The notes: generated by a model from the letters alone, not told the origin. DNA of 64,000 nt from an uncultured Phycisphaerales bacterium (GCA_963844715.1 CAWJPJ010000006.1:512001-576000), one strand, 5' to 3'; shown: positions 45,916 through 50,400, counted from the first letter of the stretch. Translations and numbers: made by a program.

Positions 45916-46776
45916 ATGCCCGCGCCGGCCATCAATATCCTCCACATCACCACCAACGAACACACCGCAATCTTCGACGACCTCCTCGAACTCCTCACCG
46001 ACACGCTCGAGCAACTCGGCCATGCCGTGCAGCGGACGACAACTCATTTCGACCGCAGCCGCATCAACATCCTCGTCGGCCACACGGCCGCTCTCGAAAA
46101 AGAAGCCTACGACTCCATCCGGAGCAGCGGCGCGAAATACATCATCTTCCAAATGGAGACCCTCACCGACCGCCCCGGCATCCCGCGCCCGTCGCAGGCT
46201 TATCTCGACGTCCTGTCCCATGCCAACCAAGTCTGGGATTATTCGAAAAACAACCTGGCGTTCCTGGCCGCCCGCGGCTGCCGCGATTTGCAATTTATTC
46301 CCCTGGGCTATTCCCGCCGCCTCGAACGAATCGCGCATGCGGAACAAAAAGACATGGACGTCCTCTTCTACGGCGCCGGCAACGCACGCCGATTGAAAAT
46401 CGTCGATGCCCTCCGCGCCCGCGGCTTGCGCGTCGACGCCTTCTTCAAAGCCTACGGCTCCGCCCGCGACCAGGCCATCGCGCGAGCCAGGATCGTTCTC
46501 AATCTGCACAAGTTCGACCATTCAGAATTGGAACAGGTGCGCATTTCGTACCTGTTGAACAATCGCGTTTTCGTCATTTCCGAATCAGCCGAGGGAAACC
46601 CCTGGGGGGATGGCGTCGTCTTCAGCGACTACGACAAAATCGTCGATTGCTGCGTCGAATCTGCCCAGCCCGGCAAAGACGCCGCCCGCGTAGAAATCGC
46701 AACAAAGGGCTATGAGGCCCTAAAATCATTGCCGATCGGCGCGAGCCTCGAGGCCGCGCTCGCAAGGATCCAGTGA
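45916..46776 (+). CDS. Glycosyltransferase-like (GT-B) protein
   Basis: VWDYS, DVLFYG..RR, IARARIVLNLH, EQVRISYLLNN..VISE. Confidence 0.65.
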   Translation: MPAPAINILHITTNEHTAIFDDLLELLTDTLEQLGHAVQRTTTHFDRSRINILVGHTAALEKEAYDSIRSSGAKYIIFQMETLTDRPGIPRPSQAYLDVLSHANQVWDYSKNNLAFLAARGCRDLQFIPLGYSRRLERIAHAEQKDMDVLFYGAGNARRLKIVDALRARGLRVDAFFKAYGSARDQAIARARIVLNLHKFDHSELEQVRISYLLNNRVFVISESAEGNPWGDGVVFSDYDKIVDCCVESAQPGKDAARVEIATKGYEALKSLPIGASLEAALARIQ

Positions 46777-46779
46777 GAT

Positions 46780-46808
46780 TTGACGCGACCGACGGAGGGA
46801 AGTAGCCT
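46780..46808 (+). promoter_or_regulatory. Sigma70-type promoter of the tRNA-Pro/GIY-YIG locus
   Basis: TTGACG (46780-46785), 17-bp spacer, TAGCCT (46803-46808). Confidence 0.65.
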
Positions 46809-46827
46809 GCTCATCCGGAAGTTTTTC

Positions 46828-46877
46828 CGGGGCGTGGCGCAGTTTGGTTTAGCGCGGTCGCTGCGGCGACAGGCCGC
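46828..46877 (+). other. 5' pseudo-tRNA-Pro with anticodon arm replaced by GTCGC-tgcg-GCGAC
   Basis: cggggcgtggcgcagtttggtttagcgcg matches the tRNA 5' part; followed by the hairpin and aggccgc. Confidence 0.85.
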
Positions 46878-46915
46878 TTTTCCGCAGGAGGCTCAGTTCG
46901 TTGTGACTTTATTTC

Positions 46916-46992
46916 CGGGGCGTGGCGCAGTTTGGTTTACGCGCGCTTGACTGGGGGTCAAGAGGTCGCAGGTTCGAATCCTGTCGCCCCGA
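46916..46992 (+). tRNA. tRNA-Pro(GGG)
   Basis: cggggcg/cgccccg acceptor stem, cttga-ctGGGgg-tcaag anticodon arm, ggttcgaatcc; one extra C at 46940 is probably an error. Confidence 0.93.
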
Positions 46993-46993
46993 T

Positions 46994-47233
46994 TTGTTTC
47001 ACCTATACGTCTTGCGAAGCCAGAAAACCGGCCGCAGATATGTCGGCTCGTGCGAGGACATCATCAACCGCCTTGATCAGCACAACCGTGGCGAGTCCAA
47101 ATCCACCAGACACGGCGTGCCCTGGAAATTGATCCACCACGAAGAATATGCGACCCGAGCGCAGGCAACGCAGCGAGAACGATATTTCAAAACTGGAAAG
47201 GGCCGAGAGGAACTCGACCACCTCAAGGTTTAG
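46994..47233 (+). CDS. Small GIY-YIG nuclease (UPF0213/SLX1-like), copy 1
   Basis: LYVLRS..YVGS..RLDQHN.G..KSTR..PWKLI..EE..A..RERYFK; TTG start inferred. Confidence 0.88.
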   Translation: MFHLYVLRSQKTGRRYVGSCEDIINRLDQHNRGESKSTRHGVPWKLIHHEEYATRAQATQRERYFKTGKGREELDHLKV

Positions 47234-47282
47234 CGCGGTCGCCGCGGCGACAGGTCGCAGGTTCGAATCCTGTCGCCCCGAT

Positions 47283-47522
47283 TTGTTTCACCTATACGTC
47301 TTGCGAAGCCAGAAAACCGGCCGCAGATATGTCGGCTCGTGCGAGGACATCATCAACCGCCTTGATCAGCACAACCGTGGCGAGTCCAAATCCACCAGAC
47401 ACGGCGTGCCCTGGAAATTGATCCACCACGAAGAATATGCGACCCGAGCGCAGGCAACGCAGCGAGAACGATATTTCAAAACTGGAAAGGGCCGAGAGGA
47501 ACTCGACCACCTCAAGGTTTAG
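47283..47522 (+). CDS. Small GIY-YIG nuclease, copy 2
   Basis: Identical to copy 1, offset by 289 bp. Confidence 0.88.
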   Translation: MFHLYVLRSQKTGRRYVGSCEDIINRLDQHNRGESKSTRHGVPWKLIHHEEYATRAQATQRERYFKTGKGREELDHLKV

Positions 47523-47571
47523 CGCGGTCGCCGCGGCGACAGGTCGCAGGTTCGAATCCTGTCGCCCCGAT

Positions 47572-47745
47572 TTGTTTCACGTATACGTCTTGCGAAGCCA
47601 GATAACTGGCGGCCGATACGTCGGGTTCTTGCGAGGACTACGCCGCCCGCCTTGATCAGCACAACCGAGGCGAATCCAAGTCGACCAGACATGGCGCGCC
47701 CTGGAAATTGGTCTACCAGGACGAATATACGACCCGGCCAGCGCG
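47572..47745 (+). pseudogene. GIY-YIG nuclease copy 3, diverged and truncated
   Basis: FHVYVLRSQITGGRYVG / SCEDYAARLDQHNRGESKSTRHGAPWKLVYQDEYTTR, then abuts the stop codon of the next gene. Confidence 0.8.
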
Positions 47746-48768
47746 TCAGAATCCGCTCAAAGTTACTTTCCCGATTGCCTTGCCGCTCTCCGATATGGCG
47801 TGGGCCTTCTTCAGGTTTTCGACATTGATGGGGCTGAGTGTCTGCGTCTGCGTGGAGCGCACTTCGCCTCGGTCAACCAGGTCTGAGACGCGAGTGAGCA
47901 GTCGTCCTTGCTCGGCCATATCCGGTGTCTGCCACATCGAGCGGGCGAACATGAACTCCCAGTGAAGCGATGCCGATTTTCGCTTTAGCGGCACTACGTC
48001 CAGCGATTCCGGATCATCGATCAGTCCAACCTTTCCCTGCGGAGCCAGAACTTCGATCAATTGCGGAAAGTTCCGTGCGGTCGCCGTCAGGCTGGCGATA
48101 TATTTCACCGGAGGGGCGGCCAGCGCCTTCACCTGGTCGGCCAGCGGTTTGGTGTGATCGACCACATGGTGGGCGCCCATTTCAGTCACCCATCGCACCG
48201 TTTCCGGCCGCGATGCAGTTGCGATGACGGTCAGCCCCGTGAGCCGCCGCGCCAGTTGCAAAAGGATTGATCCCACGCCGCCCGCGGCTCCGCTGACCAG
48301 CAAAGACGCGCCGCTGTCGCCCTCGCGAACCCCAAATCGATCGAACAATAACTCCCAGGCGGTGATGCTAGTCAGCGGCAGCGCGGCGGCTTCGGCGAAG
48401 CCGATCGATTTGGGTTTGCGTCCCACCAGCCGTTCGTCCACCGCCTGATATTCCGCATTTGATCCGGGACGATCCAGTTCGCCGGCGTAGTAGACTTCAT
48501 CTCCGACCGAGAACCCACTCACGGCGGCGCCTTTGCCTACGACGACGCCTGCCGCATCCCACCCGAGCACACGCGGCTTCCCCGCGACGGGCGACGCCGA
48601 GCCTTGATGCCGCGCGCCGCGTACTTTCGTATCAACCGGATTCACCGAAACCGCCCGCACCGCAACCAGCAAGTCGCGCGGCCCCGGCTCCGGCCGAGGC
48701 AGATCCATCTCCACCAGCGAATCCTGGACCTCAAGCGGCCCCGGCCGAGTAAAGGCAATCGCTTTCAT
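47746..48768 (-). CDS. Zinc-binding alcohol dehydrogenase family (quinone oxidoreductase-like)
   Basis: SVNPVDTK, LGWDAAG, ALPLTSITAWE, GAAGGVGS, SLHWEFMF. Confidence 0.92.
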   Translation of the reverse strand: MKAIAFTRPGPLEVQDSLVEMDLPRPEPGPRDLLVAVRAVSVNPVDTKVRGARHQGSASPVAGKPRVLGWDAAGVVVGKGAAVSGFSVGDEVYYAGELDRPGSNAEYQAVDERLVGRKPKSIGFAEAAALPLTSITAWELLFDRFGVREGDSGASLLVSGAAGGVGSILLQLARRLTGLTVIATASRPETVRWVTEMGAHHVVDHTKPLADQVKALAAPPVKYIASLTATARNFPQLIEVLAPQGKVGLIDDPESLDVVPLKRKSASLHWEFMFARSMWQTPDMAEQGRLLTRVSDLVDRGEVRSTQTQTLSPINVENLKKAHAISESGKAIGKVTLSGF

Positions 48769-48945
48769 GCTCTCTCCGGCATTGATCGGCCTCTCAGTAT
48801 AGCCCTAATTCAGGTGTGTGAGTCAAACTATCGGTTTGAGTCCAGAAGTCACGCCCCCTACCCTTCAACGTTTTCCAGGCCTCTTCAACTTCAACGACGC
48901 CCCGTGTTGTTCCCAATACTTCGCAAAATGACCGATTACTGCTCC

Positions 48946-49015
48946 GTCGCCCCGATTTGTATCACTTCCACTTCCCGCGACGCCAGACAACCGGCCGCAT
49001 CGTAGCGCGGGTCGC
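48946..49015 (+). repeat. Degenerate, internally deleted fourth copy of the tRNA/GIY-YIG unit
   Basis: gtcgccccgatttgt.tcac..gcga.gccaga.aaccggccgca, then tagcgcgggtcgc (unit end). Confidence 0.75.
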
Positions 49016-49028
49016 GTTTTAGTTCGAC

Positions 49029-50400
49029 CTACGCCGCAATAGCCCTAGGCGTATATCCCCCGTGGGCCAGGTAAACCTTCAGAGCCTCGAATACCTCCGG
49101 GCAAATTCCGTCGCCGGCCGTCCGGGTCAGAATGCTCATCACTTCCTCCGAGGTCAGGTCTTTCCGATACGGCCGCTGCGCCGCCAGCGCCTCGAACATA
49201 TCCGCAACGCACAGGATTCGATCCGCAATCGATAACTGATCCGCAACCAATCCACGATGGTATCCCTTCCCATCGAGCCGTTCGTGGTGCGAAGCCGCCA
49301 GCGATGCCAAATCTCGGAACCCCGCCACCTGGTGCAGCAACTGGTACGTATACGCCGGATGCTTTCGCATTTCGACAAACTCTTGCGGCGTCAGCTTCCC
49401 CGGCTTGTCGAGAATCAGATTGGAAATCCCCAGCTTTCCGATGTCATGCAGCAAACCCGCGCGGCGGAGGATTCGATTTTCCGCCGGGCTGAATCCCATC
49501 GTGGCCCCAATGCCCGCCGCGATTTCCGCAACGCCTTCGGAATGCTTGAACGTCCATGGGCTCTTGGCGTCGATCACCTGCGCGAAACCATGAGCGATGC
49601 GATCAAGCGTTGCCGGGTCAGCAGTTAGGGACTGATCTTGCGGTTCAACCGCCGCTATGGCTTGTTTCGGATCTTCGGCGAAAAACGTCACCCAGAATTG
49701 CTCGTCATTTCGGAATGACGTCATCGCCTGCACCAGATTGGGATCGAACCACGTCCCGCTGCGGTTTTTGGCCACTTCGTAAGCGGCATCGATTCCGTCG
49801 GTGCGGGCAAAAACTTCCACCGTCTGCGACAGCCCAAGAATCCGCGCCAGCAGCGGAATCGCCTGGCCGCGCAAACCTTCCGGATGGCCGTGCCCGTCCC
49901 AATGTTCGTCGAGCGATCGAATCGCCCCGGCGGTGGCCTCGGGAAAATGCAGCTCGCGGGCGATCTTCGCCCCGCGCTCGCATCGCAATTCAACCAGCTC
50001 GCGCGCCCTTTTCGGCCCCGCCAGGGCAACCCTCGCAAGCTGCTCCGCTTTTTTCAGAATCGATCCCTCTGGTCTAACCACGCCCGCCGCATACGCGATT
50101 GCCGACGGCATGCTCGACCAGTTAACGGTCTTGATCCCCCCCTTCACTTTGCGATCATCCGCACCAAATAGAAAGCACATTTTCGAAGCGTTGGTCGAAC
50201 ACCCCAGATCTTTCATCAGCAGCGCATAGAAAAGGGCTGAACTTTGATCCGGCGTCAGCTTCAATTCCCGCGCTCAGCGCATCCCGAAACAACAACTTCG
50301 CGCCGCATGCCCCAGCGGCTGCCCCTCGGTCAAATCCAGCGCATACGAAAGCGCCCCGATGACCTCCGAAAATCGGACTTCAACCTTGTCATTTAGGCAT
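49029..50400 (-). CDS. Tandem HD-GYP domain phosphodiesterase (indels near the 5' end)
   Basis: ALSYALDLTEGQP.GH, KDLGC, EHWDGHGHP, HDIGK, HHERLDGKGY. Confidence 0.85.

Follow-up and report, generated by a model that had tools for sequence, protein, structure and literature searches.

Tandem GIY-YIG nuclease genes beside tRNA-Pro(GGG), and spare tRNA copies in which a 14-nt palindrome replaces the anticodon arm: a putative nuclease-plus-hairpin cassette

The window, that is, the whole stretch of DNA that was analyzed (64,000 nucleotides from an uncultured Phycisphaerales bacterium), lies on contig C6 of a 4.55-Mb assembly (G000) with a G+C content of 59%, the close relatives of which are labelled Tepidisphaeraceae. 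It contains an intact tRNA-Pro(GGG) gene, the sole GGG isoacceptor gene found in the assembly by ARAGORN, followed by two identical genes encoding a small GIY-YIG protein and by partial copies of the tRNA. The features of the locus are given below with window coordinates, strand and, in brackets, the source of the annotation.

46826..46876, plus strand: 5'-half copy of tRNA-Pro, comprising the acceptor 5' strand, the D arm, a palindrome variant and AGG (sequence, repeats)
46916-46992, plus strand: intact tRNA-Pro(GGG) (ARAGORN; Rfam RF00005, 58.4 bits)
46994..47233, plus strand: GIY-YIG nuclease gene, copy 1, 79 aa (Pfam PF01541, sequence)
47227-47281, plus strand: tRNA-like copy 1 (sequence, palindrome search, repeats)
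47283..47522, plus strand: GIY-YIG nuclease gene, copy 2, identical to copy 1 (tblastn 100%; repeat family D1)
47516..47570, plus strand: tRNA-like copy 2, comprising a D-arm fragment, the palindrome at 47527-47540 and the tRNA 3' part (sequence, repeats)
47572..47737, plus strand: third GIY-YIG copy, decayed, frameshifted near 47625 and truncated at its end (tblastn, repeats)
47746-48768, minus strand: Zn-dehydrogenase (alcohol-dehydrogenase) gene (Pfam scan)
48942..49010, plus strand: older remnant, with the final 10 nt of the tRNA and then a degenerate GIY-YIG start (repeat family D2)

The core of the locus consists of two units of 289 nt each, 100% identical to one another (46963-47251 and 47252-47540). 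Copy 1 of the nuclease gene opens with a TTG start 1 nt past the tRNA end and closes with TAG at 47231-47233; the nuclease frame has no stop codon of its own, and the TAG is supplied by the D-loop sequence of the next tRNA copy. The decayed third copy was recovered by tblastn as two fragments that lie in different frames (83% and 76% identical) and in repeat families D2 and D3 (93% and 83% identical, respectively). An argument for gene conversion based on the perfect tRNA part in front of this third copy was dropped, as the stretch may stem from a recent duplication. The older remnant at 48942 is the fourth member of repeat family D2 (64% identical), and we infer from its sequence that 48942..49010 is what remains of another cassette. 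With a decayed GIY-YIG start and a tRNA end beyond it (48926-49040), the dehydrogenase gene would thus be bracketed by cassette remnants. Upstream of the real tRNA, the 5'-half copy belongs to repeat family D9, in which 28 nt match the beginning of the real tRNA at 100% identity, and to repeat family D4, in which 32 nt are 94% identical to both downstream copies. It carries the palindrome variant GTCGCTGCGGCGAC at 46857-46870, with one mismatch.

The genes neighboring the cassette are housekeeping ones. Nine ORFs between 43.4 and 55 kb were assigned by Pfam to alanine racemase, PurD, the Zn-dehydrogenase, an HD domain, rhodanese, a metallo-beta-lactamase fold, peroxiredoxin and DUF900, with one ORF lacking a family match. 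No integrase, transposase or methyltransferase was found among the 10 Pfam-scanned ORFs of this interval (nuclease included). In public sequence data the locus occurred in only four low-depth DNA runs of one study, in short contigs which leave the array unspanned, and at most 0.04 of the sampled locus words occurred in any public RNA run. At another place on the contig about 24 tRNA genes, one of them untypable by ARAGORN, are packed into 3.4 kb (G000:C6:952626-956065).

A preliminary description of this DNA had claimed that the anticodon arm is exactly replaced in the tRNA-like copies with both flanks kept, and direct comparison of the sequences confirmed it. In the real tRNA the anticodon arm is CTTGACTGGGGGTCAAG, placed between ...CGCGCG and AGGTCGC..., and both copies carry GTCGCCGCGGCGAC between ...TTAGCGCG and AGGTCGC..., so that 17 nt have given way to 14 nt and the flanks are retained. 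The two palindromes are exact and occupy the positions originally assigned to them, 47238-47251 and 47527-47540. tRNA-like copy 1 is composed of 11 nt of the D arm (47227-47237), the palindrome (47238-47251) and a 3' part (47252-47281) that comprises the variable region, the T arm and the 3' acceptor strand and is identical to tRNA positions 48-77 at 30/30 nucleotides. Otherwise the real tRNA differs from the copies only in its D loop, which has one C more (46939-46941). The tRNA's own partial copies do without this extra C, and so do the tRNAs of two congeneric genomes (G001 and G002) and a contig of run X1. In the copies the 5' acceptor strand is missing, as is one half of the D stem, and neither ARAGORN nor Rfam (E up to 1, 46700-49100) called a tRNA in them; the real tRNA alone was called.

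The 79-aa protein is spanned from residue 2 to residue 70 by PF01541 (E 9.6e-13), with no other domain detected by Pfam. Y5, Y16, G18, R26, H30 and E62 were invariant in an alignment of 11 diverse nucleases (A1); the catalytic residues are intact and the protein is a predicted nuclease. Among all PDB chains (phmmer, E up to 1) its relatives were the UPF0213 proteins 1ywl and 1zg2 alone, and the same search gave no match to Eco29kI, structures of which are presumably present in the PDB. The score obtained against TIGR01453 was 21.9 bits, the cut-off being 56. Look-ups of the nuclease in NCBIfam and the ESM Atlas returned generic GIY-YIG labels.

The nuclease was present in 11 of 41 related genomes. 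In the congeneric genome G001 a tRNA-Pro(GGG) is accompanied by a nuclease 71% identical at the protein level and by a downstream copy with the identical palindrome. In the second congener, G002, the cassette (nuclease 64% identical) sits at a different gene, tRNA-Pro(CGG); the flanks of the copy match the CGG tRNA and the palindrome is again identical. The tRNA-Pro(GGG) of G002 is plain, without the cassette, and lies by the ortholog of the upstream gene in the orientation opposite to that gene, and in G000 the tRNA-Pro(CGG) is followed only by a D-arm-plus-palindrome remnant. The cassette thus appears to occur in only some of the congeners.

A scan of one genome per species with a nuclease alignment of three sequences (A2) yielded 35 loci, 30 of them with a same-strand tRNA beside the nuclease gene, spanning Planctomycetota, Verrucomicrobiota, Acidobacteriota, Saccharibacteria, Bacteroidota and others. 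The palindrome or variants of its central two bases were found in copies of tRNA-Pro (GGG, CGG, TGG), Arg, Ala and Asp. Palindrome-bearing copies are known from the first four of these phyla, and their flanks always match the local tRNA. Nucleases of at most 44% identity accompany other GC-rich hairpins. The nucleases from other phyla were 67-71% identical to the window protein, as close as the same-genus ones, which points to horizontal transfer. Phages were considered as a vehicle and dropped, since viral contigs gave only 1 weak relative.

Substituted copies were counted with a script that accepted GC-rich hairpins with both 8-nt flanks matching the neighboring tRNA. It recorded 46 hairpin-substituted copies in 26 of 52 loci; the window itself was missed because of the extra C in the real tRNA. 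In the metagenome set (the best 80 of 283 relatives, 79 distinct) a same-strand tRNA was present in 68 of 79 loci, and 72 hairpin-substituted copies were found in 54 of 79, with the window palindrome or its 16-nt extension in 35 of the 72. Palindromes stand on both sides of the gene in the window (46857, 47238) and also in L021, L022, L024, L025, L028, L030, L035, L036, L039 and L043. Two gene orders were seen, tRNA-nuclease-copy and copy-nuclease-tRNA, and arrays of upstream 5'-half fragments are common among the related loci.

Some other arrangements were noted during this survey. In L032 (Acidobacteriota, 1440-1490) the downstream palindrome-bearing 5'-half copy is inverted relative to the upstream copies. 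In L006 and L007 (genomes G038 and G040) inverted repeats enclose a homologous GIY-YIG gene that follows tRNA-Ile and tRNA-Ala, and the flanks resemble 23S rRNA by eye, as with an intervening sequence. The homologous gene of L009 (G029) is placed about 95 nt past a tmRNA gene, with its tRNA-like 3' end.

The extent of the replaced segment differed between tRNA types. The entire anticodon arm is replaced in the Pro, Ala and Asp copies, and the 5' strand of the anticodon stem alone in the Arg and Lys copies. In some lineages a second hairpin stands in place of part of the T loop or D loop, and two or three different hairpins are combined in some copies. On its left side the swap nearly always borders on the end of the D stem. 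In the clade of the window nuclease no spare copy with an intact anticodon arm was found. In one comparison of tRNA pieces a single piece spans the arm, the palindrome-substituted copy of L042; in the metagenome set 3 of 123 pieces do so, one of them palindrome-substituted and the other two, from a more distant clade, bearing a 20-nt palindrome in the D arm instead. Homologous loci with a normal anticodon arm in their copies would contradict the preliminary description; the spare copies there lack it, so no such contradiction arose.

The palindrome is in excess over expectation. At up to 2 mismatches the window holds 8 matches, against a mean of 1.47 in 100 shuffles, none of which (0/100) reached 8. 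The whole assembly contains 13 exact copies and 0 of the reversed control pattern; G026 likewise contains 13 exact copies, and 39 other relatives 0-5, with 0-1 for the reversed control. The preliminary description had tied the palindrome to the anticodon position of tRNA-like fragments, and genome-wide this held for a part of the copies: 3 of the 13 exact ones are fused to a tRNA D arm (the two in the window and the remnant 25 nt past tRNA-Pro(CGG), G000:C6:973236), and the one-mismatch copy at 46857 is a fourth case, but the others are scattered outside tRNA copies. No flank motif common to the dispersed palindromes was found in G000. Most of the scattered ones sit in low-complexity stretches of short repeats (C7:1064804, C6:1242208, C8:269164, C3:48502-48571), and two lie about 20 nt past tRNA-Ser or tRNA-Ser-like 3' ends. 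In nuclease-free genomes most exact palindromes occur in GC-rich sequence that looks coding, so a part of the scatter appears to be background; these contexts were judged by eye, as a stop-to-stop ORF test did not discriminate in a GC-rich genome. G026, with four nuclease matches, has at least 6 copies of a longer repeat in which the 14-nt palindrome is central (L077, L080, L084-L087).

Taken alone, the palindrome can form the 5-bp stem with a tetraloop that had been proposed for it, but in context the minimum-energy DNA fold pairs its parts with the D-stem and variable-region flanks (z about -2.5). With such alternative pairings the hairpin is not the sole predicted fold, and folding neither supports nor excludes it. 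Some variants among the loci change the center and preserve the stem (GTCGCC-AC/TT/TG-GGCGAC), and in others both arms are altered together (TCCGCC..GGCGGA, TCGGCC..GGCCGA). These asymmetric centers and coupled arm changes fit a hairpin better than a symmetric double-stranded site. CCGCGG forms the center of 33 of the 46 hairpins in the 52-locus set. The palindrome stays constant while the protein diverges down to about 50% identity and the tRNA context varies, which argues for a constraint on the sequence itself and suggests that it belongs to the nuclease and not to the tRNA.

The closest published system, by analogy of layout, is that of SsnA from Neisseria meningitidis. According to the available text of the report, SsnA is a 94-aa single-domain GIY-YIG protein which binds the NTS hairpin repeat in single-stranded DNA only and cleaves immediately upstream of this repeat (Chenal et al., Nat Commun 2025, PMC11893778). 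NTS flank ssnA on both sides and are scattered genome-wide in copy numbers reported to reach hundreds, homologs prefer different hairpins, and the authors remark on a resemblance to insertion sequences (PMC11893778). The window cassette shares with this system, as far as that text describes it, a very small single-domain GIY-YIG protein (79 aa versus the 94 aa of SsnA), GC-rich hairpins on both gene sides as in the NTS-ssnA-NTS layout, further hairpins dispersed elsewhere, clade-specific hairpins and an insertion-sequence-like layout. It differs in that the hairpins sit in partial duplicates of tRNA genes, where they take the exact place of a tRNA arm (PMC11893778 does not mention tRNA), and in that tens of hairpin copies, 13 of them exact, were found here against the hundreds reported for NTS. 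The published SRM pattern gave 0 matches at the window locus, where it was rejected as a description of the hairpin, and matched in 2 of 52 loci; on contig C6 it was about 2-fold above Markov controls. In L016 a canonical NTS-like repeat lies near a nuclease 31% identical to the window protein (E 2e-8). For the window clade the likeness to Ssn (CDD cd10448) is one of architecture. A 29-nt SRM-matching sequence recurs at least 10 times across the G000 contigs (e.g., C6:366299, C7:1366143) and probably marks one end of some unrelated repeat or insertion sequence.

Other known systems resemble the cassette in fewer respects. SegB, a phage protein, is larger and modular and includes a DNA-binding part. 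The protein of the window consists of the catalytic domain only, without SegB-like modularity, and its cassette is chromosomal, with 1 weak relative in viral contigs. As in the available accounts of SegB from phages T4 and T6, a GIY-YIG gene lies among tRNA genes and is inherited with flanking tRNA sequence (PMC2330249), and nuclease-driven tandem amplification of the locus is described there too (PMC13096335); hairpin-overwritten tRNA copies are not among the SegB features reported in those accounts. With REP/BIME elements and their RAYT enzymes (IS200/IS605-like) the cassette shares a dispersed short hairpin tied to the nuclease gene that it flanks, following the comparison in the available text of PMC11893778. 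The duplicated tRNA 3' part downstream of an inserted element recalls att duplication by integrases; here, however, there is no integrase among the scanned ORFs, the insert is about 290 bp long, a foreign hairpin takes the place of the anticodon arm, and 5'-half copies occur too. RAYT enzymes are HUH tyrosine transposases that act through covalent intermediates. A GIY-YIG hydrolase is unable to join strands, so the cassette, unlike RAYT-linked elements, would have to rely on host repair for its spread. The marks of a GIY-YIG type II restriction enzyme, namely similarity to Eco29kI or Cfr42I and an adjacent methyltransferase, were not found in the PDB search (E up to 1) and among the scanned ORFs, and the copies lack the cloverleaf and anticodon of a functional tRNA according to ARAGORN and Rfam. 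No description of hairpin-overwritten tRNA copies beside GIY-YIG genes was found in the mostly open-access literature searched, the Ssn supplements aside. The tRNA-associated nuclease-plus-hairpin cassette is widespread and apparently undescribed in print.

We favor, with moderate confidence, the reading that the palindrome is the nuclease's own hairpin site and that recombination provoked by the nuclease between tRNA-derived repeats amplifies and spreads the cassette. Three observations argue for a hairpin site: the palindrome follows the nuclease clade and not the tRNA type, it flanks the gene on both sides, and it is dispersed in the genome. Of the three roles that the preliminary description had offered, a recognition hairpin is therefore the best supported, by comparison of loci and by analogy with Ssn. 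The nuclease gene with its hairpin would constitute a selfish cassette of about 290 bp resident in tRNA genes. One tRNA copy stays intact, presumably under selection, and spare partial copies would receive a hairpin-overwritten arm, which in the clade of the window nuclease is the whole anticodon arm. The mode of action is inferred: by analogy with Ssn, the protein would recognize the hairpin as single-stranded DNA and cleave next to it, within the flank derived from the D arm, and recombination or template switching between the tRNA-derived repeats would then mend the breaks. Such repair could yield the tandem units, the upstream 5'-half fragments and both gene orders, as well as moves between tRNA genes and phyla, with the conserved tRNA sequence serving as homology. 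The arm swap would also disable the spare tRNA and interrupt the direct repeat. The hairpin-site reading does not account for the writing of the hairpin into new copies, or for the copies with several hairpins. Further points against it are the poor fit to the SRM pattern, the modest copy number, the dispersed palindromes without a common flank motif in G000 and the predicted fold, in which the simple hairpin is not favored.

The main alternative, possible if rather unlikely, combines homing with the immunity mark that had been suggested at the outset. The natural tRNA gene would be cut at the junction of the D arm and the anticodon arm, perhaps in single-stranded form, the palindrome would be a resistant replacement carried by gene conversion into the spare copies, and the intact tRNA would survive only through the need of the cell. 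The lack of spare copies with an intact arm in the clade and the position of the left edge of the swap, nearly always at the D-stem end, would be expected under this scheme. The upstream fragments (5' half, palindrome and a few bases of the variable region) resemble repairs templated from a palindrome-bearing copy, and the contig of run X1 that joins 46851 to 46941 would be an allele without the upstream fragment, a weak indication at a depth of 4 with a shorter side of 27 nt. The available reports on phage T4 offer a precedent in SegB, a GIY-YIG homing endonuclease in a tRNA cluster (PMC2330249) that drives segmental amplification (PMC13096335). Against these points, an intact and presumably cleavable tRNA beside the nuclease gene would be cut too, a mere mark need not stay identical at 14/14 positions, across phyla, at about 50% protein identity, the palindromes outside tRNA copies are left unexplained, and Pfam detected in the protein no DNA-binding domain of the homing-endonuclease kind. 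The intact spare copies thus missing from the clade speak for an immunity mark, but the intact tRNA beside the gene and the identity across phyla do not.

A role at the RNA level is improbable, and the anticodon-less tRNA mimic, the third of the early suggestions, shares this assessment. It would have the copies co-transcribed with the nuclease gene to act as tRNA mimics, processing signals or hairpins that stabilize or terminate the mRNA. The ORF begins 1 nt past the tRNA and ends at the TAG within the next copy, which makes co-transcription plausible, compensatory changes in the hairpin would suit an RNA stem as well, and L042 and L098 each hold a full-length palindrome-bearing copy that ARAGORN reports as a tRNA of undefined type. 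The window copies, however, are truncated, without a 5' acceptor strand and with only one half of the D stem, and are recognized by neither Rfam nor ARAGORN, many copies elsewhere are 5' halves only, and in several lineages overwriting of the T loop and D loop has also destroyed the tRNA fold; it is this truncation and overwriting that make the role unlikely. The window hairpin, moreover, is not followed by a U tract, and in L044 and L048 a hairpin, terminator-like by sequence reading, separates the tRNA from the nuclease gene. We consider it very improbable that the protein acts in the manner of a restriction enzyme, as a dimer on the double-stranded CCGCGG core. Its attraction lies in the frequent CCGCGG center (33/46 hairpins) and in the GIY-YIG enzymes Cfr42I, which cuts CCGC/GG (PMC2241918), and Eco29kI (PMC1952068), as the available texts describe them; yet asymmetric centers (AC, TT, TG) keep the stem, the phmmer search of the PDB chains (E up to 1) gave no Eco29kI match, no methyltransferase was found among the 10 scanned ORFs at 43.4-55 kb, and the protein has only 79 aa. 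Scarcely credible, finally, is an origin by att duplication in an integrase island, by an assembly artefact or by chance. Integrative elements duplicate tRNA 3' ends, and repeats can confuse assemblies of metagenome-derived genomes, but the unit is only 289 bp long, the scanned ORFs at 43.4-55 kb include no integrase or transposase, the architecture recurs in dozens of independent assemblies, and the palindrome excess goes far beyond the shuffles. The initial view that simple att duplication would not produce the locus was borne out by the comparative data.

We also put forward, tentatively and as a rather doubtful extension, that the cassette, with its gene of about 240 bp and its 14-bp hairpin, would be smaller than any other autonomous homing element seen so far. 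The cloverleaf of a single-stranded tRNA gene would be attacked at the base of an arm, the hairpin would be copied by repair into the spare copies, and the tRNA sequence would serve as a portable homology arm across phyla; in effect, such a cassette would be a programmable hairpin writer acting on tRNA genes.

If the favored reading of the palindrome as the nuclease's own hairpin site is true, Ssn-type nucleases would gain a second way of life, as a minimal selfish cassette in tRNA genes. Beyond the repeats scattered over a genome, such a cassette would settle in tRNA genes, duplicate them and overwrite the spares. It would explain a class of fragmentary tRNAs that mislead tRNA annotation and interrupt metagenome assemblies, and it would show a 290-bp element crossing phyla via tRNA homology. 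The many natural nuclease-hairpin pairs, with their varied specificities, may then be of use for single-stranded-DNA tools. One small protein and a few oligonucleotides would suffice to test the system directly.
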